Shown: positions 9,299 through 26,370, counted from the stretch's first letter. The stretch: DNA of 27,165 nucleotides from a virus (IMGVR_UViG_3300037424_003002:1-27165); one strand, 5' to 3'. A program made the numbers and translations. Notes: a model not told the origin generated them from the letters alone.

Positions 9299-9320
9299 GA
9301 TCTATCTCCTTATGGATTAG

Positions 9321-9354
9321 TAAAAGCCCGCCCGTTTTCTGCGCGGCGGGCTTT
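9321..9354 (-). terminator. Intrinsic terminator after capsid and cement genes
   Basis: aaagcccgcc (9323-9332) pairs with ggcgggcttt (9345-9354); on the minus strand the stem ends in TTTTACT. Confidence 0.7.
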
Positions 9355-9373
9355 GGTTGTGTTTGGGTTCGGC

Positions 9374-9769: not shown

Positions 9770-9781
9770 GTCGCACTCTCC

Positions 9782-10759: not shown

Positions 10760-10780
10760 AACATTCTCCTGAAAGGATTA

Positions 10781-11473
10781 CTACTGACGCTTGGGGGGTT
10801 CCTGCGATTGCCACTGTCCGGAAGACAGGCCCTTGCTGATCTTCTCCTCAGGCGTCAACGGTTTGGATGATGGTCTTGCTTCGCCTCCGCCCAGCGTGCG
10901 GGCATCGGCTGTATCTTTTTGGAGTTCCAACCGCTCACGCTTCTCGCTGACAGCTTTCTGGACAGCCATGATGTACTTGACCATGCTCCCGTTGGGATCA
11001 TCGAGCGCCGTCTGGATGTTTCTGAATTCAGGGTCGGTTGCTTTGACATCCAGCTTCTCGGTCTCGTAGATCTCCATGGTCGCATCAAATACAGGGTGTC
11101 CGGGTCCAAGTCCCTGCGGCTGCTGGGGTCCTGGTTGTTCTGGCGTGGCTTGGGTCTCGCCATCAACACGAGACTCAATTTCTCCACGTAAGGCTGCCTG
11201 CATCTCGGGAGTTATGGCGACGTTGGCTTTCGTCAACATCTCCGTAATTCCTTTGAGCTGCGTTTCGACGTTGCGCGTTCGGTCTCGATCAGATTGCTTT
11301 ACACGACTAACGATCTCAGTCGCGAACTGGTCGAGATCTTTCTTGGTGACATACTGCGGTTGTTCCGCGGGCTGCTCCGGAGACGCTGCGGGCTGGGCAG
11401 GTGTTGGCTCGGGAGCAGGTTGCGCACTGGCCGGTGCGGGGATTGCCTGCGGTTCGGTGGACGGTAGTGTCAT
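10781..11473 (-). CDS. Capsid scaffolding protein (putative)
   Basis: ATG 11473 with GGAGG SD; Pro/Gln/Glu-rich N-terminus followed by helices; immediately upstream of the MCP. Confidence 0.65.
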   Translation of the reverse strand: MTLPSTEPQAIPAPASAQPAPEPTPAQPAASPEQPAEQPQYVTKKDLDQFATEIVSRVKQSDRDRTRNVETQLKGITEMLTKANVAITPEMQAALRGEIESRVDGETQATPEQPGPQQPQGLGPGHPVFDATMEIYETEKLDVKATDPEFRNIQTALDDPNGSMVKYIMAVQKAVSEKRERLELQKDTADARTLGGGEARPSSKPLTPEEKISKGLSSGQWQSQEPPKRQ

Positions 11474-11492
11474 TGTGAAAGTTCCTCCATTG

Positions 11493-11554
11493 CCGACAAA
11501 CGAAAAGCGGGACGCTACATGTGTAGCGTCCCGCGGGGTTTCCGATCTGTCGGA
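11493..11554 (-). terminator. Leader terminator/attenuator upstream of the scaffold-capsid genes
   Basis: Perfect 13-bp inverted repeat 11507-11519 / 11522-11534, followed on the minus strand by TTTTCGTTTG. Confidence 0.7.
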
Positions 11555-11577
11555 CAAGATATTAGGTTGTGCCGCGG

Positions 11578-11608
11578 ATTATAGCACAGAAGATCTTACC
11601 GCCGTCAA
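11578..11608 (-). promoter_or_regulatory. Sigma70-type promoter for scaffold/capsid genes
   Basis: Extended -10 TGcTATAAT (11586-11578); TTGACG at 11608-11603 (19-bp spacer). Confidence 0.7.
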
Positions 11609-11615
11609 TGGCGGT
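11598..11615. promoter_or_regulatory. Palindromic site (exact copy) overlapping the -35 box
   Basis: ACCGCC GTCAAT GGCGGT. Confidence 0.75.
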
Positions 11616-11626
11616 ACCTTCCGGAA

Positions 11627-11893
11627 TTACTTGGCTCGCTTGGATGTTATTTCATTAAGAGCGCCCTGCACGTTGTTCACACCAAATAACTCGACAAGCT
11701 TCTCGATCACTTCGTAGGCAGACAGGTAATCAAGATTGCCGACGCGATCAAACTTCAAGCTTTTTGTGGCTGGCTTTGGTTCGAGCTGATCCAGCAGATG
11801 GGCGCAGTATTCCAAGATCAAATCTTCGTAATACCCCTCTCTATCCCCTACCCACTCGATATACTTTTCATGTGCTCGATCTGTCGTGGTCAT
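11627..11893 (-). CDS. Hypothetical 88-aa protein coupled to the methyltransferase
   Basis: GAGGAG SD; ATG overlaps the MTase stop (ATGA); helical composition. Confidence 0.7.
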   Translation of the reverse strand: MTTTDRAHEKYIEWVGDREGYYEDLILEYCAHLLDQLEPKPATKSLKFDRVGNLDYLSAYEVIEKLVELFGVNNVQGALNEITSKRAK

Positions 11894-12573
11894 TTAGTGG
11901 CTCCTCTCTGCTGATTGATCACATCCAACAACGCCAAGCGCTTTAGTGCCGGCATCTCTGCAAGCATTCGCCGCCATCGCTTCTGCTGCTTCTTGATCGT
12001 CTCGCGCTCGCGGTAGTTCTCACCAAGATAAGAATAGTCGTGCAGCTCGAACGGCTCGGGGTAGTTCATCCATAGACATTCCTCGACCTGGTATCCACCA
12101 CGAACCATGACAGGATAGCTGATCCGCCTCCAATGTAGTTCATCGTAGAGCTGGTGCCTGTAACCTGAGATCGCGACGGGGCAGGGCAGAGATATAAGCA
12201 CGCTCAAAAGTTCCTGGTGCTCCTCGACAGTGGCGAACTCATGCTTGTAGATCGGCTGCCTGTGCGACCGAGTCTCCATGAGATAGGGCGGGTCGGCATA
12301 AACGAACTCGCTGCCGGTCCAGTTGTATGACTTGAGAAAGGATATCGCATCACCGTGGATGATGGTGCATGCAGCATCGCTGCTCATGGCGGTACGGAAC
12401 CGGGCAATTGCTTCAGCATCGACATCTATGCCGATGTTTGCGATCGCCGGCCTCTTCATGCGCATGATCGCGCCGCTGCCCAGGAAGGGTTCGATGTACG
12501 TGGTGTGCGGCGGGATCTGATTGATGATCCGCTGATGCACGCCGCTGTAGTTCTTGCCGCCTTTGTATCTCAT
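11890..12573 (-). CDS. Dam/D12-class N6-adenine DNA methyltransferase lacking the usual target-recognition domain
   Basis: YKGGK (X), YIEPFLGSGA (I), IGIDVD (II), GDAISFL (III), YADPPY (IV), ISGY; start ATG 12573 with GAGG SD. Confidence 0.85.
   Translation of the reverse strand: MRYKGGKNYSGVHQRIINQIPPHTTYIEPFLGSGAIMRMKRPAIANIGIDVDAEAIARFRTAMSSDAACTIIHGDAISFLKSYNWTGSEFVYADPPYLMETRSHRQPIYKHEFATVEEHQELLSVLISLPCPVAISGYRHQLYDELHWRRISYPVMVRGGYQVEECLWMNYPEPFELHDYSYLGENYRERETIKKQQKRWRRMLAEMPALKRLALLDVINQQRGATK
12349..12435. repeat. Three degenerate palindrome copies inside the MTase gene
   Basis: ATCACC GTGGAT GATGGT (12349), ATCGCT GCTCAT GGCGGT (12376), ATCGAC ATCTAT GCCGAT (12418), each preceded by GC. 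Confidence 0.6.
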
Positions 12574-12590
12574 GGCTACCTCTGTCATCG

Positions 12591-12619
12591 AGTATCGCCG
12601 AATGTGGCGGTGTTGTCAA
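12591..12619 (-). promoter_or_regulatory. Sigma70 promoter of the MTase with a palindromic site in its spacer
   Basis: TTGACA (12619-12614), 17 bp, GATACT (12596-12591); ATCGCC GAATGT GGCGGT at 12594-12611. Confidence 0.8.
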
Positions 12620-12634
12620 GGGTATAATTCCAAT

Positions 12635-12780
12635 TGCCCGGGAACGCCGTCTCGGTGCCCACACAGGGAGGTGCAGTGGAGATGTCTCGCAGCTCTGCTC
12701 TTGGCGTGTGAGTATACTGCTCCCCTTTTCTGGTGCTCTCCCCGATGGTTTCCGAGCCGGTTGGGGAGAGTGCATTTCTT
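12635..12780 (+). ncRNA. Candidate structured antisense RNA (three hairpins), family unknown
   Basis: TATAAT at 12623-12628; hairpins 12640-12660, 12665-12726 and 12733-12773 with several G-U pairs valid only on the + strand; ends in ATTTCTT. Confidence 0.4.
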
Positions 12781-12969
12781 GCCGTTGTTATGACCTGTAA
12801 CAGGGCGTGCTTGCTTGCTATATTGCAGATGTGACCTACGGTGCGGCGCGCGCGTTTCCTGCATCCAGAGCCGGATAAGCATATAGTCATACAGCGGGAT
12901 AGAAAGAAGCGCAGGGCATGGGTTCATTACGGCCTTGTGGTGGGAGGAAATAGATTGTTCATTCTATTG

Positions 12970-14331
12970 TCACCACAAATTTCTAAGCGCGTATAACTGA
13001 TTAATCGTAAGGCACGGAACCCCTTGGGTGGCAATATAATCCACCAATCCCTGAAAGCTCGCCGTACTCCACCCGTAAGTGGATGGAGTCTCAGCAATAT
13101 CGTGCAGAACGAAACACGCCACCTCGTAGGCGGATACAGCAGAATCAACTAATCCCGTTGCGGTAGCCAGGCTATCGGTCGGTCTTAGTTTTGCTGATGG
13201 CACTTTATATTTATCTATTTCGTAGATATCAAATAATTGCTGGGCAGAAGAGTCGTATAGTCGCCCGAGTTGCATCCCGGTGTTTTGCATCGCCGTTAGT
13301 GTGTCCGCGTTCCAACCGCCGCCGGGATAGGCGACGAAGGTGGCGGCGTCTGAAAGACTGTGCGCGATCAGGGCGTTTTTTGCATCCGTAAATTGCGCCT
13401 CCTGCTCCGCCTCGGTAAGAGTCGTCAGGGTGGGGTGCGTCTTTGTGTGGTTGCCAATCTTCCATCCAGCCGCCGCCATCTCCTGAAGCTGCTCCCATGT
13501 ACAATATCCCTCTGTTCCAATGCGATCAGTAATGGCATACGCCGTACCAACAAGCCCTTTGGATGCCATGTATGGGAAAGCTACTGTATATAAACTGGTA
13601 ACGCAGTCATCGAAGGTCAATAAAACACTCCCGGCAATCTGGGGGGCTTCCGGTGCCGCAATGGCGTTCATTTTTGCGGTAATGGCTGCGATTTGAGGGG
13701 TGGTAAGTTTCTTGTTGTACTGGACGTATGCCTGCACGCAATTCTGCCCAACGTGCAGCGGGACCGTTGCCGAATTTGAACCAAAAATAACAGAACTACG
13801 CGCTGGGGTTTCTGTGTAGCCGGACACAAACGTTTTGACAAGACTCCCGTCTACGTACCCCAGCGCGTTGCTGCCATTCGCTTCTGTCACAATTCCCACG
13901 ACTCCGGCGGTAATAGCCCCCGCAACTGTATTATCCAAAGTTCCGCAGATGAAATCCTTGCCCTGATAGGTTCCAACCGCAATAATGCAGTTTGTTTCCT
14001 TTGCGCCGAATAAATCGACTATTCCGCTGGACCTTGAAAAACGAAGCAATGCCGTATTTCCCAATCCAATTGCGCAGCCGGTATCCACGCTTCCAGTCCC
14101 GCCCTGCCCTCCTCCACTCACCCAGCCATAATACGGAGAATAAACAACGGTGGAGAGAACACTACCGGGTGATCCCCCTGCCAAATTAACAAGGCTTGAC
14201 GCAAGGCTGCCTGCATTTAAGGGCACGAAAGCACACACAATATCGGCGCGAGTAACACCCTCGGTAAGGAATACACCCAAAGGATTTTCGCCGACTGCGA
14301 TCACCGGAATAAACGCACGCCTATTGCGCAT
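12970..14331 (-). CDS. Polysaccharide deacetylase (CE4/NodB) fused to an N-terminal LamG/ConA-like beta-sandwich
   Basis: LLTFDD, GNHTKTHPTL, VAYPGG and VLHD CE4 motifs; N-terminal half has GYVDGSL..VIFG..YVQYNKKLT; visibly more AT-rich than its neighbours. Confidence 0.85.
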   Translation of the reverse strand: MRNRRAFIPVIAVGENPLGVFLTEGVTRADIVCAFVPLNAGSLASSLVNLAGGSPGSVLSTVVYSPYYGWVSGGGQGGTGSVDTGCAIGLGNTALLRFSRSSGIVDLFGAKETNCIIAVGTYQGKDFICGTLDNTVAGAITAGVVGIVTEANGSNALGYVDGSLVKTFVSGYTETPARSSVIFGSNSATVPLHVGQNCVQAYVQYNKKLTTPQIAAITAKMNAIAAPEAPQIAGSVLLTFDDCVTSLYTVAFPYMASKGLVGTAYAITDRIGTEGYCTWEQLQEMAAAGWKIGNHTKTHPTLTTLTEAEQEAQFTDAKNALIAHSLSDAATFVAYPGGGWNADTLTAMQNTGMQLGRLYDSSAQQLFDIYEIDKYKVPSAKLRPTDSLATATGLVDSAVSAYEVACFVLHDIAETPSTYGWSTASFQGLVDYIATQGVPCLTINQLYALRNLW

Positions 14332-14370
14332 GGAACACCTCGCACGATAGAAACTTTATTCTATTCATAG

Positions 14371-14730
14371 TCATGATGTGCCCCATCCATACAGGCCCAC
14401 AAGAATCTCTCTTGCCGCCGCCTGAGCGACCGGCGTTCCGCTGGTTCCGCTGCGCAACTTGATCGCATCTGCAAGCATTGGCAGGTCTGCTGGATTGATG
14501 TGAATATGCCGACCCGCCGCGGCTTTTATCACCAATTCGGTGCCGTCCTTGTCGTACACATCTCTGAAATCCGAATCGTTCATGCTTGCCTGAAGCGTGA
14601 GGTCTCCGGTAGTCCATTCGGCGGGCAGGGAAATTTCACAAATCCCCGCGCCGTTGACCTGGATCGCGTCGCTCAGGCTTGCACTCTCGGCAATGGTTGC
14701 TGTAAGTTTTGGTATCCAAGCTGTTGACAT
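14371..14730 (-). CDS. Small virion-type beta-sandwich protein
   Basis: AAGGAG SD; SLSDAI...LPAEWT...LTLQAS.....F.DVYD pattern seen in phage structural proteins. Confidence 0.55.
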   Translation of the reverse strand: MSTAWIPKLTATIAESASLSDAIQVNGAGICEISLPAEWTTGDLTLQASMNDSDFRDVYDKDGTELVIKAAAGRHIHINPADLPMLADAIKLRSGTSGTPVAQAAAREILVGLYGWGTS

Positions 14731-14741
14731 TTTTTATCTCC

Positions 14742-17700
14742 TTATTGTTGTGGTTGCTGGTACATCATAGCGGGCACGACCTGACTATTGAGCCAGGATT
14801 TGAAATCGCCCATCGGTCTGCCCTCCCTGATCCATACTTGTTCGAGTGCCGACGTCGCGCCCTTTGGCAGAGGCTTGCCGGTCATGGCATAGGTGACAAT
14901 GAACTGCTCGAGCCCCGGCGCCCACGTGGAGGTGTCTACTGTTTTGAATACCTTGCCCTGAAGGATCGGCTTGAGGCCGGGGTACTGTTTGTAGTAGCCA
15001 TCCCTCCAGTTCTGGTATTCCTTGAGCCGCGGGAACTTCAAGAGATACCCGGCGCGCTTCGACTTTGGCAGGGAGTAATAGCCCTGCTCGAGCATGAAGT
15101 AATCTGAATACTTATCCTTGCGCTCAGTGAAGAATTTATCAGTGACCGCGGTCACACTCGGATCATACAGGTCCAACTGCGGCTGCTCGCCAGCTGGCAC
15201 CGCCATCACCGGCGATGTCTCCGGAGTGCGCGGGATCAGGGCGCCCAGCATCTGTGCCCAGCTGGTCAGCGTCTGCACGTCCAGGCTGTCATAGGATCGG
15301 GTCTCTTTGTCCAGGAAGGACCTGGCGAACTCGTCGCCCATCTGCGCGCGCGCGGCTTTCTTGTTTGTGTCACCGAGCGCCATGTACTGGTCCCAGATGT
15401 TGCCGACCAGATAGGACCGTAGTCTCTCCTGCGGCTCTTTGCCTTTCGCCAGGTACGCTTCGTACTCCGGATGTTCCTCGAAGAATGAATTGATCGCGGT
15501 CTTGTCGCCGGCATCGTACTGTTTCCAGGCTGCATTCCATTCGGTCTTCAAGCCGCGGTACTCCAGCTCACCGGCTGGCAACAGACCTGATCCGAACAGC
15601 GATGGCAGGAAGGACTTGGCTGCATCGCCTGCGCCGCCGTGTGTACCTGCGTAGACCGCGCCGGCCAGTGGTGTGCGCATGGCGAGCTCCATCTTTACAC
15701 GCTCACGCGCCTGGTCGAAGAGTTCACCGTTGCGCTCGATCATCGCCATCTGTGCATCCTGGGAGGAGATCAGTCCCTCCGCTACCATATTCGCCAGCTG
15801 CCGGTCGACATAGTAATCACCGAATTCACCGAACTCAGGCAGCCCGGCTTTCTTGCGAAGCATCTCCTCCGGCTTGCCGATCACGCCGACAAACTGACCA
15901 ATCGGTTCTGCCCAGGTTCCCTTCGTTGTCGCCTCGATAGCGCGGGATGTGTTGAGTAGCGGCGTCGATGTGACTTTGTTGGGGTCCCCCTTGGATAGGA
16001 ATGGAACCTCGACACCCATCAGATTGAGCGGTGTGCTCAGATACCATGCCGGCCCGAACAGGGTTGCCATGAAGTCAAACGGGTTGGAGATCTCGGACTC
16101 TCGCCTAATCCCTGCCTCCGCTGCGGCTCGTTCCCATAGCGCTCCGCTCCTGGTGGCTGCTGCCTGTGCGATGGCGTCCTGGCTGATCGTCCCGTCTGCC
16201 GCCCACTCCTGGAGGATACGCTCTGCCTCGATGACCTGATAGTTCTTGTCGCGCATCATTGTTTCAAAGGGACGCAGGAAGCCCGCCGGCGTGAACAGGT
16301 TTTGAAGCGGGTCGATGTAGAGCGCGTCGCCCATCCAATCCGGAAGCCAGGGGGCAGGGATACGGAACTTGTTGCGCAGGCGCTCGGGTACATCCCGCTC
16401 ATGCTGGTTCTGCATGTTACGGATGCGGGCATAGTTGGCATACCATGACGGCTTGTCCAGGGCACGTATGCCCCAGGTCATCAGGCTCCTGGTGTAGTAG
16501 AACTCGTACGGCGCTACCGTCTCCAGGTAGCGGTCGAAGCCATACCGCCGGTTGTAGTTCAGCATAGCGAAGTCGCGCTGGCTCTCGCCCCACTTGACCG
16601 TCGAGTTCTTCACCGCGCCCATGTCGTTCTGCACGCTCCGAACGTACTGCCTGAGCTGCTGCTGCCCTTCAGGAGACAAGTCTTTATAGGCGCCGTCGAG
16701 CGATCGCTCGCCCGTCAGCTTGTCGATTGCCACGGTCTGCATTGCATCCAGGAGCGGACGGACATGCTGCTTCCAGCCGGCGTCCTGCCATTCACTGTCT
16801 GCCTTGAAGCCTGAGGCGTTCTCCATGGTGCCGAGTGGGTACGGGTCCTGAAAGATGGTGTTGTTGCTGTCGGTGTTGCGCTGCGCTCGCATTCTCTTTG
16901 CCTTCTCACGGATCGAGTCCAGGTCGAGAGTCTGCCTAATGTAGGCTACCTCTTCGGCGCGGGCTGCCTCGTCGATGTTGAGATCGATCTTCTCTTTGCC
17001 TGTTCGCTCTTCCTGGACAAGCCGGTTCTCGGTTGCGTTCCCGCGAGCTTCCATCTCTGCGACGGTCAGGTCGTTGTTATAGGAGGCTTCGGCTACCACC
17101 TGGTCGCGTTGCAGTAGGTCAAGCTCCTGATCGAGCCGCATTTGTGTATCGATGAAATCTCTCACGATCTCATAAGGCACGTCATCCGGTATAGACTGGA
17201 AGGCGCTGTTTATTTCAGTGTTCAATTCCTGTAGTCTTTTTATCCTCTGCGCCTCACTCCCGCTCTTCAATGTATTGTCAAGACGCGCGAGGATATTATC
17301 CAGTCCTCCGATCAAATCTTCCGGCGTGACCTCCAGCAAACCCGCGCCGCTTGCCTGCAACAACTCCCGATTGACAAGCGCCCTGTCCACTGCTTCAGGT
17401 GTCAAGTCGTCGAAGCTCATCACGTATTGTCCCTCTTCAGTGTTGCCCGCGTACTTCTTCACCAGACGCAACAGATCGTACCTCGCGCGGGGTACCTGGT
17501 TGCCCTGATCATCCACTCCGAAGAAGCCGTGGTTTGCTGCTGCCTCCCACACACTGGTGACTTTGGCTTGGACGGCTTCCTGCTGCTCGCGCACGCGTTG
17601 CTGAGCCTGCTCGATCAAGGCGCGGGTCTCATCTGCAACAGGCTCTCTGATAAACACATCCTCCCCACCTGTGCGCGTAGTGGTAGCAGGGGAGGGGGCG

Positions 17701-20700
17701 TCAGGTGTTGGCTGGGTGGTTGGCGCAGATCCTGCACCGCCATTCCTGATGGTGCGTTCGAGCCGTTGTATCCCCTCCTGATTGATGTGCTCCAGCTCTG
17801 CGATCTGTGCGACCTTCTCTGTCTGGTAATACTTCTGCTTGGCTGCTTCGATCTGCTCGCGTGTTGCTCCCATTTGCCGGGCTTGCATCTGTTCTCGGCG
17901 GAAGTTCTTTTCCCTGGTCACGATCTCATCAGAGAACTTGACATATGCCTCCCACCACTGGCGCGCCGCTTCTCCTGCAGCAACGCCGTGCATGTCGGTG
18001 TGGACATCGGCGAGCGCTTCACCCATGCGGACCTCTGCCTGGTGCTTGGTGGCGAATGCCTTGTCAAAGGCGCGGTCGATGGCTGCCTGGTCCGACTCCC
18101 ATGTACTTGGCGCGTTCGGGTCATCACGGAGCCGGTCGAAGAATTTTCGACGCGTCTCCCGCATGAAGTCGTATGCCTGCTTCATAGCGGCATCACTGTC
18201 CGCGATCGCCGCCAGCATATCCATCGCCTTCGGGTTGCCACTCTCCCCCCAGGCGTCGAAGATACCCTTGTAATTGCTTGCGGTCCGGGCGTTGACGCGC
18301 CGGAATTCCTGATCGCTGATCTTGTACGCTTCCTCGATGGCGCGATTGCGCAGGTCCGGATCGTAGATTTCCTGCAAGTCGGCGAAGATCTCGCCGAAGC
18401 GGGAGTAGTGATCCAGCCAGGCGTCGAAGTATTCACCGTTCACGCGCTGCACTACATCCAATGCGGCCGGTGCGCCTTCAGCCTGGACCTTGTTGGTCAC
18501 AGATTCCGCCATTGCCCTGAGATCCCGGGCGGTCTGCATGTCCTGGAAGTCCTGAGCCTTCTGCACGGCTCGAGTGAATGCGCCTCGTACTTTGTCGGGC
18601 GTGTTAGCCTTCGATAAGCCGCGGTCCAGCTCATCCAGGACGCCGACCTTTTCCAATAGCCTGGCTGCGCTCGTCGCGGGGATGTTCATCTTCTGGGCGG
18701 CGTCGTTGACCAGCGAGCGCGACATGATCCCCGATTGCCTGGAGAAAATGAATCGCTCGATCTCGCCTTTGTTCATGCCGGCTTCGATCAGGTTGTAGAT
18801 CTGGTTCGGGTTGATGCCGGCCCGCTCCAGATGACTGCGCAGTTCCGGCGTGACTTCACTGAACCCTTTGCCCCGTCTCCAGGTCTGCGACCACATGTCA
18901 CGCATCGCGATCATGTAGCCGTTCTTGCCCTCCAGACTCTCGAATGCGGAGGATAGTTTATTGAACGGCATCGCTTTACCAATCGCAGACGTCCACCGCT
19001 GCGCCTTGCCGAGTGCGTCGTTCTGGTTTCCCTTGATCGCCTTACCGATCTTCTCCGTCTTGACGCTGCTCTTCGAGGTTGCCTGCTCGACCACGCCACC
19101 GATGCCGACGCCCTCCTCTAATCTCGCAGGCGTCACGCCGAACCGCTCAAGCCAGCCATCGATCTGCCGCGGCGTCATGTACCCATAGATGCCGGTCGCT
19201 GCCCGGTGCACCATGTTTGACATGCCATTCTGCAGAGCGTAGCCAGGTGAGCCGCCCAGGAGGAGCACGGATTGCGCGCTCTTGAGTAAGTGCGTGGTCC
19301 GGAAGAATGCCTTACTCTCCGGCGTATCCTTCCCAAGTTCCAGCTTCTCGACCGTCCACTCATCGAAGTGCGAGCCGAGCGCGTCCATCAGTGACGCCTT
19401 CCATTGATCCGGATGCCAGTGCAGGGCGCCGTCGCCGGTGAATGCGTCGACAATATCCTTTAGGTGATCCGGGGTGAACTCGCCGCGCTGGATCTGCCCC
19501 AGTAACTCCTTTGCGCCCGGGTCGGCTGAGTCCTGGAGTCTCTTCGTCACGCGCTGAAAGTCCTGCTCGGTTGTGCCGCGCTTCGCCAGGTCCTCGATGA
19601 ACGTGCCGGGCTGCTCACCCAGAACGTCCGCCATCTTGAGCAGAGCTTCCCGCTTTGGCTGTGCCAGGTCCCAGGAGGCGAGTAGCCCATCCACCTTCTG
19701 ACCGTCGAAGTCCTTGAGCGCGGGCAGGATCGTGTACCACTCCGGAGACTGCGCGATCTTGTTGCCCATCTCAGACCACAGTTTCATGTCGCCCTTCGAG
19801 AGCGTGCGCATGAACTGACCGATCTCATGGGGATCAGAGAATGTCGAGAGGAGTGAGCCGATGTTGTTGTAGAACATGGTCGCCCCTTCGCGTGCGCGTG
19901 CCTCCGGCGTCAGGGCTGCGATGTCTTCCTTGAACTTCTGCCAGATCCCAGCGCGCTTGGTCGGCTTGTCAAGTAACCCTGTCTGCGTGAGCGGACCGGC
20001 TTTGATCTGTCCGGCTTCGTTGATGCCTGCCACCCAGCGCGAGACGGAACCCATCTGGGAATAGTCGAAGCCCGGCGCCATGTCTCCCGTCTGGACCAGC
20101 GTCTGATACCTTCTCGCTGCTTCGAACGGCGCTTTGGTTTCGGCGAATGCACGCGCCGCAGTCTCATGCCCCGTCAGTTTGGCTAACATTCCCGTCGTCT
20201 TGGTGGTGACGTTAGGCAGTTTCTCAAGCGGGTCGATCAGCATCTGACCGGTAAAGTCTGCGATCTGGGAGCCTACGAACTGGCTGTTCTCTCCGATCAG
20301 AAAGCGGACGATCTCCTTGGGGTCTTCACCTTTCAGGATCGCCGCATGGATCGTCTGCCTGGCTTCGTCGAGGACGCTGGCAGTCACCTTGTCGTGCTCG
20401 TCATAGAGATGTTCGGTCGCAGGGTTGAATGTCTTGAGCTTTGTGCGCTGGACAGGATCGGCTCTGCCGACAATGAAGTCCTCATTGACGTCGGCGAACT
20501 CGGCGTCCTTATCCCCGAACAGCCGGGCGAGTGCCGGCATCCAGTTACGAGCATCGAGGAAATCATAAGCTTCATAGGCAAACCGTCCCGCCTCCCATGT
20601 GGCTGTGCGCTGCGCGGGATCGATGATCATCTGCCTGGCGAGATCCTTGTCCTCCACTGCCGCGTACTGTAACTGTAACCCGTAGCCAATGGTCTGCTCT

Positions 20701-21590
20701 GCGCCTTCGCTCAGTTTGTTGAGCACCGCCATCATGCCCGCGACCGTGGTCGGCTGCTCGAATACTCCGGCTGTTGGATCGTACTGCTGACCGCCGACCA
20801 GACCCAGCCCATATCCAGCGGCTGCGCCCACCACCTTCCCGGGAATACCAAACATCCCACCAGCACGCGCACCAGCCAGCGCCATGGGACTTGCCATGAT
20901 CTTGGGATTCGACATGATCGACCAGTAGGTCTTCTGCCACTTGGGTACACGCGACCAGTCGAAGGCAGGATCGTTCAGGATCTGATCACGGACCGCGACC
21001 GGATACTGCGCAATGTCGAAGTTCCTATCTCCAAGGATCGTTCTGCGTTCTTCCGGATCGATGTCGTTCCATGCCGCCTGTCCCTTTCGTACCGCGTCCG
21101 TCGTTGTGAATGGGCTTTCCTTCTCTGCCTCCGGATCAGGCGGACCCTGAATGGACTTGAGAAAATCCAGAGCGGGGTCGTCGCCCGGCAGGAGTTTCCA
21201 GTCGGTGTCTGGTGTGTTGCCGTTGCGGAACTTGTGCCACTGGTACGCCTGCTCGATCTGCTGCTCCTGTCCCTTCATCCAGTCGGGCAGAGACATGTCT
21301 TTCGGCGTCGCCTTCATGACCTTATATGCATTGACGATCTGGCGCGGGTCCTGTGCCCACGTCGGCGCATATCCCAGCTGCCGCTCAATCGCCTTCTTCG
21401 GGCTGAGCATATTCTTCTGAAGCTCAGGTTTCAGGCTGTTGTAATACGGCTCATAGTGCTGCTGGTAATAGTCGGCGCGCGCAACATCTGGTGGATTGCG
21501 AACATCCACCGGCTTTGGTTTCGGTTGAGGCGGTTGGGCAGGCGGCTGCTGTGGTTTCGGCGTCGGCTGTTTCTTGGGAGTAGGTGGCAT
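14742..21590 (-). CDS. Giant (2282 aa) internal virion / DNA-ejection protein (putative)
   Basis: Uninterrupted helical ORF in the head module; Gly-zipper segment near the N-terminus; no enzyme motif recognised. Confidence 0.6.
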   Translation of the reverse strand: MPPTPKKQPTPKPQQPPAQPPQPKPKPVDVRNPPDVARADYYQQHYEPYYNSLKPELQKNMLSPKKAIERQLGYAPTWAQDPRQIVNAYKVMKATPKDMSLPDWMKGQEQQIEQAYQWHKFRNGNTPDTDWKLLPGDDPALDFLKSIQGPPDPEAEKESPFTTTDAVRKGQAAWNDIDPEERRTILGDRNFDIAQYPVAVRDQILNDPAFDWSRVPKWQKTYWSIMSNPKIMASPMALAGARAGGMFGIPGKVVGAAAGYGLGLVGGQQYDPTAGVFEQPTTVAGMMAVLNKLSEGAEQTIGYGLQLQYAAVEDKDLARQMIIDPAQRTATWEAGRFAYEAYDFLDARNWMPALARLFGDKDAEFADVNEDFIVGRADPVQRTKLKTFNPATEHLYDEHDKVTASVLDEARQTIHAAILKGEDPKEIVRFLIGENSQFVGSQIADFTGQMLIDPLEKLPNVTTKTTGMLAKLTGHETAARAFAETKAPFEAARRYQTLVQTGDMAPGFDYSQMGSVSRWVAGINEAGQIKAGPLTQTGLLDKPTKRAGIWQKFKEDIAALTPEARAREGATMFYNNIGSLLSTFSDPHEIGQFMRTLSKGDMKLWSEMGNKIAQSPEWYTILPALKDFDGQKVDGLLASWDLAQPKREALLKMADVLGEQPGTFIEDLAKRGTTEQDFQRVTKRLQDSADPGAKELLGQIQRGEFTPDHLKDIVDAFTGDGALHWHPDQWKASLMDALGSHFDEWTVEKLELGKDTPESKAFFRTTHLLKSAQSVLLLGGSPGYALQNGMSNMVHRAATGIYGYMTPRQIDGWLERFGVTPARLEEGVGIGGVVEQATSKSSVKTEKIGKAIKGNQNDALGKAQRWTSAIGKAMPFNKLSSAFESLEGKNGYMIAMRDMWSQTWRRGKGFSEVTPELRSHLERAGINPNQIYNLIEAGMNKGEIERFIFSRQSGIMSRSLVNDAAQKMNIPATSAARLLEKVGVLDELDRGLSKANTPDKVRGAFTRAVQKAQDFQDMQTARDLRAMAESVTNKVQAEGAPAALDVVQRVNGEYFDAWLDHYSRFGEIFADLQEIYDPDLRNRAIEEAYKISDQEFRRVNARTASNYKGIFDAWGESGNPKAMDMLAAIADSDAAMKQAYDFMRETRRKFFDRLRDDPNAPSTWESDQAAIDRAFDKAFATKHQAEVRMGEALADVHTDMHGVAAGEAARQWWEAYVKFSDEIVTREKNFRREQMQARQMGATREQIEAAKQKYYQTEKVAQIAELEHINQEGIQRLERTIRNGGAGSAPTTQPTPDAPSPATTTRTGGEDVFIREPVADETRALIEQAQQRVREQQEAVQAKVTSVWEAAANHGFFGVDDQGNQVPRARYDLLRLVKKYAGNTEEGQYVMSFDDLTPEAVDRALVNRELLQASGAGLLEVTPEDLIGGLDNILARLDNTLKSGSEAQRIKRLQELNTEINSAFQSIPDDVPYEIVRDFIDTQMRLDQELDLLQRDQVVAEASYNNDLTVAEMEARGNATENRLVQEERTGKEKIDLNIDEAARAEEVAYIRQTLDLDSIREKAKRMRAQRNTDSNNTIFQDPYPLGTMENASGFKADSEWQDAGWKQHVRPLLDAMQTVAIDKLTGERSLDGAYKDLSPEGQQQLRQYVRSVQNDMGAVKNSTVKWGESQRDFAMLNYNRRYGFDRYLETVAPYEFYYTRSLMTWGIRALDKPSWYANYARIRNMQNQHERDVPERLRNKFRIPAPWLPDWMGDALYIDPLQNLFTPAGFLRPFETMMRDKNYQVIEAERILQEWAADGTISQDAIAQAAATRSGALWERAAAEAGIRRESEISNPFDFMATLFGPAWYLSTPLNLMGVEVPFLSKGDPNKVTSTPLLNTSRAIEATTKGTWAEPIGQFVGVIGKPEEMLRKKAGLPEFGEFGDYYVDRQLANMVAEGLISSQDAQMAMIERNGELFDQARERVKMELAMRTPLAGAVYAGTHGGAGDAAKSFLPSLFGSGLLPAGELEYRGLKTEWNAAWKQYDAGDKTAINSFFEEHPEYEAYLAKGKEPQERLRSYLVGNIWDQYMALGDTNKKAARAQMGDEFARSFLDKETRSYDSLDVQTLTSWAQMLGALIPRTPETSPVMAVPAGEQPQLDLYDPSVTAVTDKFFTERKDKYSDYFMLEQGYYSLPKSKRAGYLLKFPRLKEYQNWRDGYYKQYPGLKPILQGKVFKTVDTSTWAPGLEQFIVTYAMTGKPLPKGATSALEQVWIREGRPMGDFKSWLNSQVVPAMMYQQPQQ
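15199..15216. repeat. Palindromic site (exact copy)
   Basis: gc ACCGCC ATCACC GGCGAT gt. Confidence 0.65.
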
Positions 21591-21603
21591 AGGTCAGGTC
21601 CTT

Positions 21604-21621
21604 ACCGCCGTTCACGGCGGT
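21604..21621. promoter_or_regulatory. Palindromic site (exact copy), intergenic, next to the RBS of the giant gene
   Basis: ctt ACCGCC GTTCAC GGCGGT; shares CTTACCGCCGT with the 11595 copy. Confidence 0.75.
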
Positions 21622-21633
21622 GCGATATCTAAA

Positions 21634-22416
21634 TTACTCCGCCGCGTTCCAGGAAAAGAGATTGAGATACGAGGGCGGGAAGTAGTCTGACGGGTTGTAG
21701 CCACCGTAGCCACCATACCCACCGCCTCTGCGCTTTCGCCAGTTAGTCCCGTACTGCGTGCCAAATCCGCCACTGCCATCGTCAAGTGGATCAGCAACGG
21801 GAAAGACAGGGATACCAGTATTGACTTGCCCGGACCCCGACAACATGGAGCCAGTCGGGAAGACCGATGGGTTCGCGTACACAGGTGGACCGCCAGGAAT
21901 ACCGGTGTTGACCGCGCCATCTCCTGACACGAATGATCCGCCAGGTCTGCCGGTGTAGCCGCGGTCCTGCATCTGATTGTATGGGTTGGATGGTCGGGTC
22001 GGCTGAGCAGCTCCACCCAGCCACGCCGGAACCCGCGGGCGCGTGACCTGCGACACTGCCGTTGGCTGTAATGCTGTTGATCCGGTCCGAGTCCTGGCAA
22101 CCGTTCCGCCTCCGCCGACAAAGGAGTTGGTCGGGACGTAGTTGTACCAGGGCACCGGCTGCCCGGTCTGTGCGCTCCGTCTCCTGGCTTCATCCTGTCG
22201 CGCGGCCTGCTCGTAATAGTTGGCGTCAAATTGCATGTCCGGGATGTTGGCGCCGGGGTTGATCCCGCCCCGCTTTTTCACCACTCCCGCCGAGCCCCTC
22301 ACGTTGCCGATCCCTGCTCCTCCCTGGGCTGTCGGCGCGGTTGGTGTCCCGCGCTGCCACCATTGCGTCGGCAGTGGCGCGCTGGTCCGTCTGTTATTCT
22401 GCTGTACCTGTGCCAT
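21634..22416 (-). CDS. Low-complexity Gly/Pro/Gln/Tyr-rich protein (possible DNA pilot/ejection protein)
   Basis: ATG 22416 with GGAGGT SD; disordered composition; position between portal and giant gene. Confidence 0.6.
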   Translation of the reverse strand: MAQVQQNNRRTSAPLPTQWWQRGTPTAPTAQGGAGIGNVRGSAGVVKKRGGINPGANIPDMQFDANYYEQAARQDEARRRSAQTGQPVPWYNYVPTNSFVGGGGTVARTRTGSTALQPTAVSQVTRPRVPAWLGGAAQPTRPSNPYNQMQDRGYTGRPGGSFVSGDGAVNTGIPGGPPVYANPSVFPTGSMLSGSGQVNTGIPVFPVADPLDDGSGGFGTQYGTNWRKRRGGGYGGYGGYNPSDYFPPSYLNLFSWNAAE

Positions 22417-22675
22417 AGTTACCTCCAGTAGTAGGGTTAGAAACAGGACGATAAGCATCCGGCTCACCGCCTGACATCTCCATGATCTTTGCGTACATCT
22501 CCGGGTATTCATCCTTCACCTGTTCTTTCACCTCGTCGGCAAGCGTCATCCACCGCATGCGGAGCGCGTCCACCATCTGCGGCATCTCCAGTTCTTCAAG
22601 GAGTTCGCCAAGGATCTCCTCGAAATCAGCGTATGCCTCGAGCAGTAAGTCGCGGAAGTCCAGGTCGGCGCCCAT
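22394..22675 (-). CDS. Small acidic hypothetical protein
   Basis: TAATG coupling with the portal stop; 93 aa, helical. Confidence 0.65.
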   Translation of the reverse strand: MGADLDFRDLLLEAYADFEEILGELLEELEMPQMVDALRMRWMTLADEVKEQVKDEYPEMYAKIMEMSGGEPDAYRPVSNPTTGGNYGTGTAE

Positions 22676-24381
22676 TACATTCTCTCCTGCGGCGGAATCA
22701 TTGGTCCCGTCTGCGGCATCTGCTCCATGTTCGGCTGTCCCTGTGCGCCCATCATCTCCGGAGACATCGCCGCCTCTGGTGGTGGGAGCTGCTCGGATGG
22801 TGGCATCGCCTGATCTGGCGGTGTCGGATCGACGCTGGCGGGCGGACCCATCAGGTTACCGAGTGCCTTCTCCATAAACTTCCCCATGATGTTCGGGTCC
22901 TGCATCATCCTGCCCGTGAACGCCTTGAGCATCTGCTCCTTGATGACCTGCTTCATCATGGCTTTGGTGTCGCCGACCTGCAGAAGGTTCTCATGTTTCC
23001 ACTCATCACTGACGAGATCTCCCAGTCCCTGCGCGATCTGGCTGTTGCGGAGATTGTCCTGCGGTAGTCTCGGCTCCAGCCTGACATCGATCTCATACTC
23101 ATCAGGGATGTCGGTCGCGGGGATCAGGTCGTTCTCGATCCCCTCGTATTTGATCCGGCAAAGGATGTGCTCGAAGATGTCCTTGAACGCCTGCTGTATA
23201 GCCTCCTTCGGGTCCTGGAGTGGAAGCTGCCCCGCGCTCGATAGCATCGCCAGTCCCGAGAACGTAGAGCCTGACAGGTTCTGACCCAACGTCTGCTTGT
23301 AGATCATCGAGTCATTGCCGACCTCGTCCAGCATCTTCTTGATCTCCATCGCATCACGGTCCACGACAGGGAAGTTTGCCGGCTGCGCTTTGCCGATGAT
23401 CTTCCTGACGCCGCCGGTGAAGTCTATGTTGATCTCTGTCTGACCGTTCACGCTATCGGGATCGACGATCAGCAGCGGACCCGGCAAGCCCTGCATGTAG
23501 AGCGCCGTGAAGATATATGTGAACCACAGGTTCTCCCGCTTATCCCACTCACCCTTGGCATGGGCATAGAGGAATGGCTGGAGCTGGTACTTGGCTTCGT
23601 TGAACAGGCTCGACCCACCCGCATACCTGGCAACGACATTCATACTGTCCATGCTGTGGTACTTGGCGAAGATCGCATTCTTCACGTTGTCAGCCCACAC
23701 GACACGCTTCTCCAGGTCCAGGAAGTCATGCACCTTGACGACTTTCCGCTGGTCTCCCTGGGTGTCGATGCCCCAGCGCTCCTTCAGTTCCAATCCGGAC
23801 ATGTTGTACTCTCGCAGATGCTGAAGCATGCCGAGCTCACCCCAGTCCTGATAGCTTTCCTCTGCATTGATCGCGCGCACCAGCACCGGCGTTCGTTTCC
23901 TGATCGCCTCCAACCGCTTCTTGTACATCGGCTTCTTCTGCACCGCCAACATGTCGTCGACACTCTCCGCTCCCAGGACCACGGGACCATACAGGATCGC
24001 CGAGAGAATAGCATCCTTATCGATGCGTGCCCGGCGGTACTCTCCACTCACACTCAGAATCTTCTTGAGCCCGTTCTCAATGTCGTCAGACTTGGGATGC
24101 TTGTCTCCCTTTGCCTTGATCGTGATGTGTACTTCGCTTGTATCCAACAGGCGCTTCATGCCGGTGACTGCATTCCTCCCGCCAGGTGAGGCGGTTAGTT
24201 TCCAGTCATCCTTGTCGACGCCCTGGTTCTTCGGCTGCTCGATGTTCTCCATGAAGTAGATCTCACGATAGCGCTGGTACATAGTCATGAGATCTCTGTT
24301 GTCGGTGACCATTCTCTGCGCCGTGGCTTTGACGGCATCAACATCCGCTTCCGGGACCTGCTTGAGTTTCTTGGTTGCCAT
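22675..24381 (-). CDS. Portal protein
   Basis: 568 aa directly after terL (TAATG coupling); SG.A..MLS-type motif; Pro/Met/Gln-rich tail typical of podoviral portals. Confidence 0.75.
   Translation of the reverse strand: MATKKLKQVPEADVDAVKATAQRMVTDNRDLMTMYQRYREIYFMENIEQPKNQGVDKDDWKLTASPGGRNAVTGMKRLLDTSEVHITIKAKGDKHPKSDDIENGLKKILSVSGEYRRARIDKDAILSAILYGPVVLGAESVDDMLAVQKKPMYKKRLEAIRKRTPVLVRAINAEESYQDWGELGMLQHLREYNMSGLELKERWGIDTQGDQRKVVKVHDFLDLEKRVVWADNVKNAIFAKYHSMDSMNVVARYAGGSSLFNEAKYQLQPFLYAHAKGEWDKRENLWFTYIFTALYMQGLPGPLLIVDPDSVNGQTEINIDFTGGVRKIIGKAQPANFPVVDRDAMEIKKMLDEVGNDSMIYKQTLGQNLSGSTFSGLAMLSSAGQLPLQDPKEAIQQAFKDIFEHILCRIKYEGIENDLIPATDIPDEYEIDVRLEPRLPQDNLRNSQIAQGLGDLVSDEWKHENLLQVGDTKAMMKQVIKEQMLKAFTGRMMQDPNIMGKFMEKALGNLMGPPASVDPTPPDQAMPPSEQLPPPEAAMSPEMMGAQGQPNMEQMPQTGPMIPPQERM
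22766..22822. repeat. Two palindrome copies in the portal 3' end
   Basis: ATCGCC GCCTCT GGTGGT (22766, one mismatch) and ATCGCC TGATCT GGCGGT (22805, exact). Confidence 0.65.
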
Positions 24382-25781
24382 TAGATACCTTTCACTCTCG
24401 CCATTGGGTGGCGTTGTGGTTTGGGTGGTTGGACTTCCGCCTTGCGTTCGTTGGTCAAGCCGTACTTGAGTGTGTCGAAGGCGTGGTCTTCCTGGTCTGT
24501 GTCGACGTCCTCGGGGTTACGCTCATCGCTTGCCAGGTTCGACATCTGTTCGATGATATGCGGGCAGGTCTCGAAGAACTGAATACCTGGATCACCATCC
24601 GGCAGGTCGGCGAGCAGGTTGTTGACCTTGCGCTTTCCACTCAGCCGGTCGTTGTCTCCCCTAGTCAGGGTGATCCCCTCCGCTTTGTACTCATCGGCGG
24701 TGGAGAATACCTGCCCCTCCCTGTTCTTGCGTTCCCACAAACTCGGGTCGGCATAGTGGATGAAGTATGTTTCAGTGACCGGTGACATATCCAGGATGCC
24801 GCGTGCCTGCTGCCGATCCGTGAGAAGCGTGGCGTAGAACTCACGGTAGACATAGATCCTGCGCGTGTCCGGGTCCTTGGTCAGCCACAACGTACAGAAC
24901 GGTGACGCAAATCCCCAGTCTGTCGCCCGCCATTTCAACCAGTGAGCAGGGACATCGAACGGCTTGACGACATGCCGGTCCCGGTTCCATTGTGGGAATG
25001 CCATGCCTGCGAACGCGTCCCAGTCTCCATCCCGCCAGGCTTTCCCGAGTGGACCGGTCAGACCATCCAGCCAGGCTTGATACTCCGGATTGACGAAGGG
25101 ATTGTAGACATGGGTCACATCGAAGAAGCGGGTGACCTTCTCCTTCATTTGCCGGAAGGGTTCGATGAACATGCGCTTGAACCACAACAGACCGATGCCG
25201 TCGGCGTTCGTGCTCAGGTAGATGCGTGGTCTCCAGTTCGGCTTCGATGTACGCAGTGACCCGCGCAGTTTATCTTTCTTGGTCTCGCTGATCTGTGTGC
25301 ATTCCTCGATGACAATCACATCGTATTCGATACCGAGATACTTCTCAATATCCTTCTCGTCCTTGAACCCGCCGATCACGATCCGGCTGCTGTTCTTCAA
25401 CTCGACGCCATCGGCAGTCGGCATGTGCGGCGTGTACATGAAGACTTTGCGGATAACGTCCTCGAGCGATTCCTTTGCCGCCTTCTGGATCTTGCGCAAG
25501 AACAAGGTCTTGAGATCGTCGCACCGGAGACTGTCGTCGAGCACCTGCCCCATAGTCGTGTGTGACTTGCCTGGTCCGCGCTTGCCGCCCAGCGCGAGCC
25601 ACTCCGGACCATCCGCAAGATCCGCCTGTCGTGCCGCAGCATGGAAGGGAAGCATCCCCTCGAGGGGGATGTATCCGGCTTTGACGAACCGCTCCGCCTG
25701 GTCGCGTGGGCAGCCGGCGTCACGCATGGCAATCAGCATGCGCTCGATCTTCTCGTCAGCTGTTATCGTCGCGACTGCCAT
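24381..25781 (-). CDS. terL: Terminase large subunit
   Basis: Walker A GGKRGPGKS, Walker B VIVIEE, coupling motif STN, nuclease ATDWGFASP and DHAFDTLKY; start ATG 25781 with GGAG SD. Confidence 0.93.
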   Translation of the reverse strand: MAVATITADEKIERMLIAMRDAGCPRDQAERFVKAGYIPLEGMLPFHAAARQADLADGPEWLALGGKRGPGKSHTTMGQVLDDSLRCDDLKTLFLRKIQKAAKESLEDVIRKVFMYTPHMPTADGVELKNSSRIVIGGFKDEKDIEKYLGIEYDVIVIEECTQISETKKDKLRGSLRTSKPNWRPRIYLSTNADGIGLLWFKRMFIEPFRQMKEKVTRFFDVTHVYNPFVNPEYQAWLDGLTGPLGKAWRDGDWDAFAGMAFPQWNRDRHVVKPFDVPAHWLKWRATDWGFASPFCTLWLTKDPDTRRIYVYREFYATLLTDRQQARGILDMSPVTETYFIHYADPSLWERKNREGQVFSTADEYKAEGITLTRGDNDRLSGKRKVNNLLADLPDGDPGIQFFETCPHIIEQMSNLASDERNPEDVDTDQEDHAFDTLKYGLTNERKAEVQPPKPQRHPMARVKGI

Positions 25782-26370
25782 AGATCTTCTCCAGGCTTGC
25801 GTCCAACCCCTCCACATGTAACCTGTGGTCGACTTCGACGCGGTCGGTGAACAGCTTGTGGTGTTTGCCGATCAGTTCGTTGGCGCTCTTCGCGTCATGT
25901 ATCTCGATACTCATCCCTCGCCGACCACGGTCAGAGAACCGCCTGACAAGGTACGAATACTGCGGGTCCATGAGGCGGTCCAAGTCCAGGATCACGCGCC
26001 GCACTCGGTAGCTGATCCGCTTGACCGGCTTCTCCCCGCTATCATCGACAACTTCTCTCTCGTCCAGGATCTCTGATGTCGGCGGCGGGTTGAACATCCA
26101 CTCGTCAGTCACCTTGAAGAAGTGACCCATGTCCCCACGCGCCATGCGACCAAGGTTTGCCAGGACCTCATCGGCACTCAAGTGTGTTTCATCCAGCCGA
26201 TCTCGGATCACTTCCTGGATGTGAGGTTTTGTGAGGAGGTCGTATCCCTGTTCCCTGGCTGTTCGTTCTGAATACCCAGCGCGGCGCGCGGCTTCCGCCG
26301 CACTCCAGCATTGCAGGTATTCATTCACGAACATCTCTTGCTTGGGGGTAAGCCGCTTGCTCTCCGCCAT
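25756..26370 (-). CDS. terS: Terminase small subunit
   Basis: LTPKQEMFVNEYL...AAEAARRAGYSERTA....LLTKPHI HTH; C-terminal ANELIGKHHKLFTDRVE; GGAGG SD. Confidence 0.92.
   Translation of the reverse strand: MAESKRLTPKQEMFVNEYLQCWSAAEAARRAGYSERTAREQGYDLLTKPHIQEVIRDRLDETHLSADEVLANLGRMARGDMGHFFKVTDEWMFNPPPTSEILDEREVVDDSGEKPVKRISYRVRRVILDLDRLMDPQYSYLVRRFSDRGRRGMSIEIHDAKSANELIGKHHKLFTDRVEVDHRLHVEGLDASLEKIYGSRDDNS

Follow-up and report, generated by a model that had tools for sequence, protein, structure and literature searches.

Dispersed palindromes in a tailed phage as likely operators of a methyltransferase-like repressor: a phage-borne variant of the Upf31 repeat module of IncP-1β plasmids

Introduction

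The viral record IMGVR_UViG_3300037424_003002:1-27165, a stretch of 27,165 nucleotides referred to below as the window, contains a dispersed palindrome, AYCGCC-N6-GGCGRT, whose copies lie in and around a Upf31-family gene with methyltransferase motifs (11890-12573, minus strand) and at several distal places. In sequence these palindromes match the IncP-1β plasmid inverted repeats, and they are probably operators for a dimeric Upf31-family repressor encoded by that gene: the sites travel with the Upf31-like gene and with no other neighbour, and they fill its promoter spacer. It is very likely that the Upf31-like protein is the binder of the sites and, by analogy with its plasmid homologue, nearly as likely that it represses its own promoter, and we propose tentatively that the distal sites may exert a regulatory effect on virion genes. 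The first-pass annotation of this DNA had taken the palindromes for an undescribed system; they are instead a phage-borne variant of a known, poorly understood repeat module, and what is new is the occurrence of that module in phages without ParB/KorB and the presence of 6-bp restriction-type palindromes in the operator flanks. The window itself combines a short host-like segment with a tailed-phage virion operon on the minus strand, whose products include terminases, a portal, a giant protein of 2282 residues, a scaffold and a capsid, and its nearest capsid relative in a named genome (78%) is a prophage of a Chloroflexi assembly (G001).

In IncP-1β plasmids the upf31 gene lies within clusters of inverted repeats. 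Elg et al. (2025) report that Upf31 represses its own promoter (PMC11997246), the activity of which falls from 4.76 to 0.09 units with full-length Upf31 (preprint 10.1101/2024.02.05.579024), and that this repression needs the C-terminal domain and is lost in the variants Y180A, F185A and W198A (PMC11997246). The same article treats four groups of inverted repeats, credited to Thorsted et al. 1998, as likely operators with their purpose unexplained, calls the repeats specific to IncP-1β and proposes an interaction of Upf31 with KorB; phages are unmentioned in its accessible part, and a later preprint, as far as accessible, again places upf31 only in IncP-1β. With pBP136 present GATC methylation was not seen, nor did sequencing by the single-molecule real-time (SMRT) method give a modification pattern, the SMRT test having set ER2796 with the upf31 expression vector alone against a control vector under default motif finding (PMC11997246). 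That substrate lacked the repeat clusters, and the published negative therefore does not cover methylation at the arrays. We found no paper that describes Upf31-type arrays in phages or restriction sites fixed next to these operators, in literature whose coverage excluded most subscription journals.

Enrichment of the Palindrome in the Window

Exact copies of the palindrome begin at 11598, 12594, 15199, 21604 and 22805, five in all against a mean of 0.04 in dinucleotide shuffles, none of 100 of which reaches five, and one-mismatch copies at 12376, 22766 and 24178 bring the total at up to one mismatch to eight, against a shuffle mean of 0.51. The signal is specific to the spacer, N6 giving five matches and every other spacer from 0 to 24 giving none or one. 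These recounts agree with the copies listed in the first-pass annotation, as does its placement of them in the methyltransferase promoter spacer, at the scaffold/capsid promoter, in a 43-bp gap and in linkers of the portal and giant proteins; its report that the host part and 2-11.5 kb lack exact copies likewise holds, the region 1-11.5 kb containing neither an exact copy nor a weight-matrix match of at least 13. The matrix was trained on 68 flanking sites of other loci, not on the window, and its scores are given in Table 1. Among the less perfect copies of the first pass, the one at 12418 is well supported (22.1), the one at 12349 is borderline, and the one-mismatch copy at 24178 was dropped as a genuine site (1.6), while two weaker extra sites at 17736 and 17982 (14.8) are not conserved in relatives. 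The flanks, which had been thought to extend the symmetry, show no simple arm extension; the consensus outside the core consists of Y/R at ±1 and G/C at ±6, for a footprint of about 30 bp.

The copies within genes also exceed what coding predicts. Against 300 synonymous-codon shuffles per gene, the methylase gene has two sites scoring at least 17 (0.17 expected, p=0.01), the portal gene two (0.18 expected, 0/300) and the giant gene three scoring at least 13 (0.23 expected, 0/300), the last reduced at the threshold of 17 to just one (0.10 expected, p=0.10). The worry that the motif was defined post hoc is removed because it is enriched out of sample around homologous genes, as described in the next section; the enrichment is genuine, and the copies are neither chance nor a post-hoc artefact. 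Three other origins were considered and rejected. A host-wide regulator or uptake sequence is ruled out by the background density in the 4.1-Mb Chloroflexi genome, which has five exact copies against three for a reversed control. RNA hairpins are rejected because the strand with the wobble or mismatch varies, 12594 and 22805 differing from 15199, though all genes there lie on the minus strand. Recombination core sites of the tyrosine-recombinase type, bounding a cassette, are ruled out by the five spacers, all of which differ, and no recombinase family is common to more than 6 of the 33 array loci introduced below. As a separate observation, distant sites share flank stretches, 17 bp being common to 15199 and 22766 although these lie 7.5 kb apart and GCGATATC adjoining both 21604 and 12349, which hints at copied site units.

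Table 1. Coordinates of the candidate sites and associated features in the window (scores are weight-matrix scores)
Feature	Position	Strand	Score	Remarks
Extended -10 (TG-C-TATAAT), scaffold/capsid operon	11578..11586	-		read from sequence
Downstream operator (candidate)	11598..11615		19.8	exact; flanks AGATCT + TCCGGA; 14 bp upstream of scaffold/capsid extended -10
88-residue open reading frame 3' of Upf31-like gene	11627..11893	-		passenger, not conserved partner
Upf31-family gene, 227 residues	11890..12573	-		PF02086; 48% identity to Upf31.0 of pAKD14
In-gene site, motif III codons (TIIHGD)	12349..12366		11.1	borderline
In-gene site	12376..12393		18.4	1 mismatch; GCATGC in flank
In-gene site, codons 47-52 (IGIDVD)	12418..12435		22.1	CGATCG in flank
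Sigma70-type promoter TTGACA-17-GATACT of Upf31-like gene	12591..12619	-		10/12 consensus match
Primary operator (candidate)	12594..12611		25.1	exact; fills promoter spacer, overlaps -10 box bases 1-3
Distal site, linker near giant-gene 3' end	15199..15216		23.8	exact; flanks CAGCTG + TCCGGA
Weak candidate site inside giant gene	17736..17753		16.1	
Distal site in 43-bp gap, directly 5' of giant-gene ribosome-binding site	21604..21621		17.7	exact; GATATC in flank
Site pair, proline-rich tail of portal gene	22766..22822 (22766-22783 + 22805-22822)		17.7, 25.5	39 bp apart

The Sites Follow the Upf31-like Gene

An alignment-based search for homologues of the Upf31-like protein gave 68 viral loci and two genome loci, single-protein scans of viral contigs having given few or none; seven near-duplicates and L090 (a minus-strand match) were dropped before counting, and 62 non-redundant viral loci were kept, the window being excluded. 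At these loci the window motif, allowing up to one mismatch, reaches 1.02 (upstream) and 1.00 (downstream) copies per kb in the 250 bp next to the gene and falls to 0.03-0.07 per kb at distances above 500 bp, a peak of about 15-fold, and spacers of 4, 5, 7, 8 and 9 give no peak, with 0-1 matches in the 250-bp bins; the motif thus does co-occur with homologues of the methyltransferase. Matrix counts adjoining the gene are circular for the training loci and are not used as evidence. At the homologue loci the sites are arrayed both within the gene and on either side of it, a conserved copy lying in a TTGAC promoter, the layout TTGAC-site-GAT recurring at 14 loci besides the window, that of pAKD14 among them, and the window's pattern recovers the repeat clusters of pAKD14 and the site in its upf31 promoter. 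Spacings between neighbouring sites peak at 28 and 38-39 bp. Site pairs at two places in the related phage G402 (G402:C1:7288-7323 and 37979-38014) abut with no linker, and this 18-bp spacing is too close for two independent 30-bp footprints.

The same dependence is seen over whole elements, where three whole gene-bearing phage records (G402, G403 and G406) were compared with three gene-less relatives. Matrix matches per 10 kb number 3.7 in the window, 4.0 in G402, 4.3 in G403, 4.0 in G406 and 3.9 in pAKD14, all of which have the gene, against 0.26 in the G001 prophage and 0 in L001 and L007, which do not; the totals (10 in the window, 16-18 in the related phages and 19 in pAKD14) amount to several dispersed groups per element.

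Another binder, whether a CI-like repressor or ParB encoded in the early region, the 88-residue open reading frame (ORF) of Table 1 or a host regulator, could in principle account for the same sites, and about 12 kb of a 39,347-bp contig with the same capsid and methylase proteins does lie outside the window, while ParB_N has a match in one of the five gene-bearing phage records (G405). We consider such a binder highly improbable. The arrays follow the Upf31-like gene across unrelated phages and plasmids without a common neighbour (apart from this gene, no family lies within 4 kb in more than 6 of the 33 array loci), the type of site changes with the Upf31-like sequence, and the exact copies in G001 are at the level of the reversed control. 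The parS-like role raised by the first pass fares no better: ParB_N has no match in G402, G403, G404 and G406, which include both complete records and of which G406 has a ParA-like ATPase, and the module therefore persists without an element-encoded KorB. The 88-residue product, once put forward as a partner and possible binder, is not supported in that role, having no Pfam, PHROG, NCBIfam or PADLOC match (its best Atlas score, 0.80, is a lead only) and no homologue at the homologue loci, the 33 array loci included.

The Upf31-like Protein and Its Promoter

The window protein, whose likely start codon is 12573 rather than 12588, aligns with Upf31.0 of pAKD14 over its full length (110/228 identical, E 1e-75), and the residues on which repression depends in Elg et al., Y180, F185 and W198, correspond to Y182, Y187 and W200. 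Its motifs follow the order GGK loop, FxGxG, D, GDA, DPPY, with DPPY kept in 56/56 family rows and 119/120 database homologues, G32 in 56/56 and E28 in 54/56 family rows; the match to TIGR00571 is far below the cut-off (34 vs 115 bits). A modest monomer model (predicted local distance difference test, pLDDT, 66) returns in fold searches a generic S-adenosylmethionine (SAM)-methyltransferase fold, with Dam among the matches. Profile positions 20-64 align to DpnM 32-76 and 85-163 to DpnM 184-264, so that residues 65-84, about 20 in number, stand where DpnM has residues 77-183, which we take to be its target-recognition domain; the Dam target-recognition insert is therefore absent from the Upf31-like protein.

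A homodimer through the C-terminal helices is predicted: the model scores 0.74 against 0.00 for the best control, where 20/30 solved pairs and 1/23 single chains pass the mark, and the interface comprises residues 173-222, a basic C-terminal helical pair, with a contact agreement between runs of at least 92% and a partner pLDDT of at least 82. Together with the enrichment at homologue loci and the published repression (PMC11997246), this model supports the earlier suggestion that a dimeric protein binds the sites and that the methyltransferase-like protein is the likely binder. Upstream of the promoter lies an ORF of 103 residues (12616-12927, minus strand) that weakly matches one located upstream of the homologue in G402 and has no NCBIfam or PADLOC match.

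Site Type and Residue 188

Homologues without the window motif often carry a variant, RYAG-N10-CTRY (A-type), in place of the RYCG-type (C-type) site. Counted by symmetric pattern, 75 C-type and 3 A-type sites lie near 41 loci with Gly6 (39 of them Arg188), against 5 C-type and 61 A-type sites (4.7 per kb vs 0.17 far away) near 14 Ser6/non-Arg188 loci. Six further plasmid homologues extend the pattern: three have Thr188 and three A-type sites each, two have Thr188 and no array, and the single Arg188 one has C-type sites; one of the Thr188 homologues with A-type sites keeps Gly6, and this implicates residue 188. At 5/5 loci of the L041 clade the in-gene site at codon 47 switches to A-type, with IGIDVD becoming VVIDVY-like. 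Arginine reading G, and threonine, isoleucine or glutamine reading A:T, fit general recognition chemistry, and we infer that Arg188, at the start of a C-terminal helix, reads the third base pair of each half-site.

Beside these two types, the upstream regions of L052, L067 and L072 show a third variant, GCCGCM-N6-KGCGRC, in TTGAC...GACSAT promoters. P2-like enterobacterial phages (L092, which is Salmonella phage SEN5, 31266-31366; L056; L063) have a Ser6 homologue with small upstream site clusters and offer a culturable system.

Distal Sites in the Virion Operon

The first-pass suggestion of late-gene regulation is plausible in view of how the placement of distal sites is conserved. The scaffold-promoter site is present in G402 and G403 and absent in all three gene-less relatives; the scaffold extended -10 is kept in relatives whether or not they have the Upf31-like gene; G402 keeps both the core and the 14-bp spacing of site 11598, although its capsid is just 27% identical. 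The site at 15199 has a counterpart at the same codon in G402 (15.8); G403 has a weaker one (12.0) some 130 bp off, and the three relatives without the gene have none. Directly 5' of the giant gene the site stands at -31 relative to the ATG in the window and at -29 in both G402 and G403, with no counterpart in the G001 prophage; the portal end has a single site in G402, two in G403 that are spaced by 39 bp, and none in the G001 prophage. The weak site at 17736 has no equivalent at the corresponding position of G402, G403 or the G001 prophage; the 12349 site recurs at the same codon in homologues and is partly forced by coding; and record G290 (20+7 kb) has no motif copy and only a distant giant-gene match.

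The arrays might instead be a self-propagating or mutational by-product, arising by duplication, gene conversion or protein-driven convergence of near-matches, with only the promoter copy mattering and the distal copies settling in low-constraint DNA without effect on virion genes. Tandem duplicated units in L028, L030 and L055, the 17 bp shared by 15199 and 22766, the position of the coding copies in proline-rich or linker segments and the decay of site density with distance from the gene all speak for this view. We nevertheless hold it unlikely, since the fixed distances to the giant-gene start and the portal-end sites recur where the proteins are 45-77% identical and the site sequences differ, the spacings peak at 28 and 38-39 bp, and the in-gene site switches type despite an amino-acid cost.

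The stretch between the scaffold promoter and the scaffold start (11507-11560, minus strand) contains a conserved CCGACAGA...GAAAC-like element and, after it, a strong terminator hairpin. This arrangement is also found in G402, G403, the G001 prophage, L001 and L007, with and without the Upf31-like gene, and may act on the capsid operon as an attenuator or antitermination control.

Restriction-type Palindromes in the Site Flanks

With sites picked on the 18-bp core alone, a perfect 6-bp palindrome starting 1-4 bp outside the core was found in 203 of 470 flanks, against 0.05 at random positions and column shuffles with a mean of 38 and a maximum of 59. The window has 7/16 (shuffles mean 1.1, max 5), G402, G403 and G406 together 29/68, pAKD14 17/36 and the A-type clades 73/152, so that the share of operator flanks with a hexamer palindrome is 43-48% vs a background of about 5%. 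There are 30 different hexamers, led by GCCGGC, CTGCAG, TGGCCA, GATATC, GGATCC, CGATCG and TCCGGA; the rate rises with the core score from 0.10 to about 0.5 and is 53/162 (33%) at isolated sites and 0.09 at lone half-sites. Part of the signal is linker symmetry, because the palindrome is mostly centred in 10-bp linkers (16/20) and many (114/299) extend to 8 bp.

One explanation, compatible with the operator reading, is that the flanks serve as a methylation sensor, host restriction–modification (R-M) methylation of the flanks competing with Upf31 binding much as Dam and Lrp/OxyR compete at pap and agn43; the element would then read whether a new host had marked it, whatever that host's systems. 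The flank palindromes, the variety of their hexamers and the climb of their rate with core score all fit, as does the purging of many flank hexamers elsewhere in the genomes of G402, G403, G406 and pAKD14 (0/5000 draws by background use), where CTCGAG, for instance, occurs four times in flanks and nowhere else in pAKD14 and GGATCC three times and nowhere else in G403. A review also notes 'regions of clustered restriction sites' in IncP-1β (PMC3590792). Against a sensor stand the linker symmetry, which covers part of the signal, and the window's own flank hexamers, which are not the avoided ones (p=0.37; TCCGGA 18 outside vs 8 expected); under an expected-frequency null, moreover, none of five genomes is significant (p 0.06-0.97), and composition-corrected flank counts are uncorrelated with enzyme numbers in the Biopython list (rho 0.09). 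We therefore regard the sensor as doubtful. Equally speculative, and in our judgement rather improbable, is its extension to a portable epigenetic device of phages and plasmids, in which flank methylation, by the host or by the protein's own catalytic domains, would set operator occupancy, so that the element would sense or record marking by a new host and gate virion or backbone genes, with a one-residue code in which Arg188 specifies C:G and threonine, isoleucine or glutamine A:T. Lower genome-wide palindrome avoidance in gene-bearing phages (0.78, 0.59 and 0.86 vs 0.43, 0.54 and 0.48) was not used in this argument, because it is confounded by other methylases and G406 and pAKD14 stand at 0.60 and 0.52.

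The methylation loading site suggested by the first pass gives the protein an active role: the C-terminal dimer would dock on the core, the catalytic domains would methylate nearby bases and so shield the flanks from restriction, and repression would be a side effect. The conservation of DPPY, G32 and E28, the SAM-methyltransferase fold, the missing target-recognition insert and a published SMRT substrate without repeat clusters (PMC11997246) are in its favour. We judge it unlikely all the same, for the plasmid homologue gave neither GATC methylation nor an SMRT pattern (PMC11997246), the half-site has no invariant adenine across variants, protection alone predicts flank palindromes near the neutral 5% rather than 45%, and in the L041 clade D52 in the motif II region has become Y to suit the DNA site.

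Proposed Mechanism and Points against It

In the operator reading, the Upf31-like protein would bind each palindrome as a dimer, and the spacing peaks at 28 and 38-39 bp suggest that binding may be phased and cooperative. Entry into a new host would be followed by a short burst of expression and then by shut-off of the protein's own strong promoter, as the plasmid homologue and the layout of the promoter suggest. Distal sites lie at both ends of the giant gene and over the scaffold promoter, and so occlusion, roadblock or looping at that promoter and around the giant gene could tune virion genes, possibly damping the virion operon.

Several points weigh against this reading. Plain repression leaves the flank palindromes and the conservation of DPPY unexplained, several homologues (L043, L048, L070, L104 and L105) have no array, and the site of G403 lies 26 bp, not 14 bp, from its scaffold -10. 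The comparison of relatives is three against three, with two of the negatives being 16-kb fragments, and no direct binding assay was found for the plasmid protein, the term EMSA (electrophoretic mobility-shift assay) occurring zero times in the accessible part of PMC11997246. A second factor might still be encoded in the phage early region, which lies outside the window. The loose RYCG pattern is just 1.6-fold over distant DNA (1.98 vs 1.25 per kb), and the covariation of site type with residue 188 amounts to three changes on the tree (two of them forced by well-supported branches), which is below significance because just 2-3 pairs are independent; the tree left out L030, L083, L084, L086 and L087, and trait columns were dropped from it.

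Comparison with Known Systems

The closest counterpart is the Upf31/IncP-1β module, with which the phage module shares a full-length protein of 48% identity that keeps the three repression-critical aromatic positions, the palindrome with its 6-bp spacer, an operator that occupies the spacer of a TTGACA promoter, several groups of sites dispersed at a density of about 4 per 10 kb, flanks with hexamers of the restriction type and predicted C-terminal dimerisation. It differs in residing in a tailed phage, with a capsid whose nearest relative in a named genome is that of a Chloroflexi prophage, rather than in a proteobacterial plasmid; the gene is surrounded by virion genes in place of the IncP-1β backbone, the phage's own early region lies outside the window, complete related phages have no ParB/KorB match, and some sites fall within the gene itself and others in the virion operon. 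From the Dam/DpnM family (PF02086, TIGR00571), whose motif order and SAM-methyltransferase fold it shares, the Upf31-like protein is set apart by the replacement of about 107 DpnM residues by about 20 and by extra basic C-terminal helices, and its plasmid homologue does not methylate GATC (PMC11997246).

More distant parallels are instructive in part. Like the phage protein as predicted here, the M.SsoII-type self-repressing methyltransferases are methyltransferase-fold proteins that repress their own promoter through a palindromic operator, but they are C5 R-M enzymes with an N-terminal helix–turn–helix and a single operator, whereas here there are amino-methyltransferase motifs, C-terminal helices, site arrays and no nuclease partner to be seen. 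The stoperators of mycobacteriophage L5, asymmetric 13-mers bound by the immunity repressor and proposed to block transcription, are likewise numerous and dispersed through phage operons, some inside genes; the sites described here are instead palindromes linked to an accessory gene missing from close relatives. The Pap/Lrp and agn43/OxyR switches, in which regulator sites adjoin methylation targets, provide a model for sensor reading, but they involve one methylase (Dam) and one target (GATC), whereas the flank hexamers here are many and different and the switch is purely putative. From ParABS the module differs in that four of the five gene-bearing phage records, all but G405, show no ParB_N match and hence no ParB/CTPase partner.

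Genomic Setting

Contigs of run X2 give depth in 30/30 bins of 9000-27165 with zero differing letters listed; run X1, of which 73% was read, has zero cover at 12.6-17.5 kb, and no RNA run with this sequence was listed. In the host-like segment an RNase_H_2 ORF (1653-2054) matches only profile positions 1-135 of 165. It meets the final gene of the phage tail to tail and may contain an integration junction. The giant protein (gene 14742-21590) has no Pfam, PHROG or NCBIfam match, and its orthologues, compared between the window, G402, G403 and the G001 prophage, measure 2282-4695 residues, their ends being conserved and their middle variable. An accessory zone of lower GC content (12970-14730), which separates the giant and scaffold genes and includes a polysaccharide deacetylase gene, differs in gene content in every relative. 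The operon is mosaic, the capsid region (9782-11557) being 77-78% identical to L001 and G001 and 27-29% to G402 and G403; the giant protein, by contrast, is closer to those of G402 and G403, and the 11598 site is common to the window and G402 across the module boundary.

Implications for Phage and Plasmid Biology

The purpose of the IncP-1β repeats has been open since 1998, and the phage module makes the question directly testable: its occurrence where KorB is lacking detaches the core circuit from an account based on KorB, and the RYCG and RYAG sites are natural specificity variants. The flank hexamers link two observations made on IncP-1β plasmids, the repeats and the clustered restriction sites. 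Beyond the window, many phage and plasmid genes annotated as 'DNA adenine methylase' would be repressors of the Upf31 kind.

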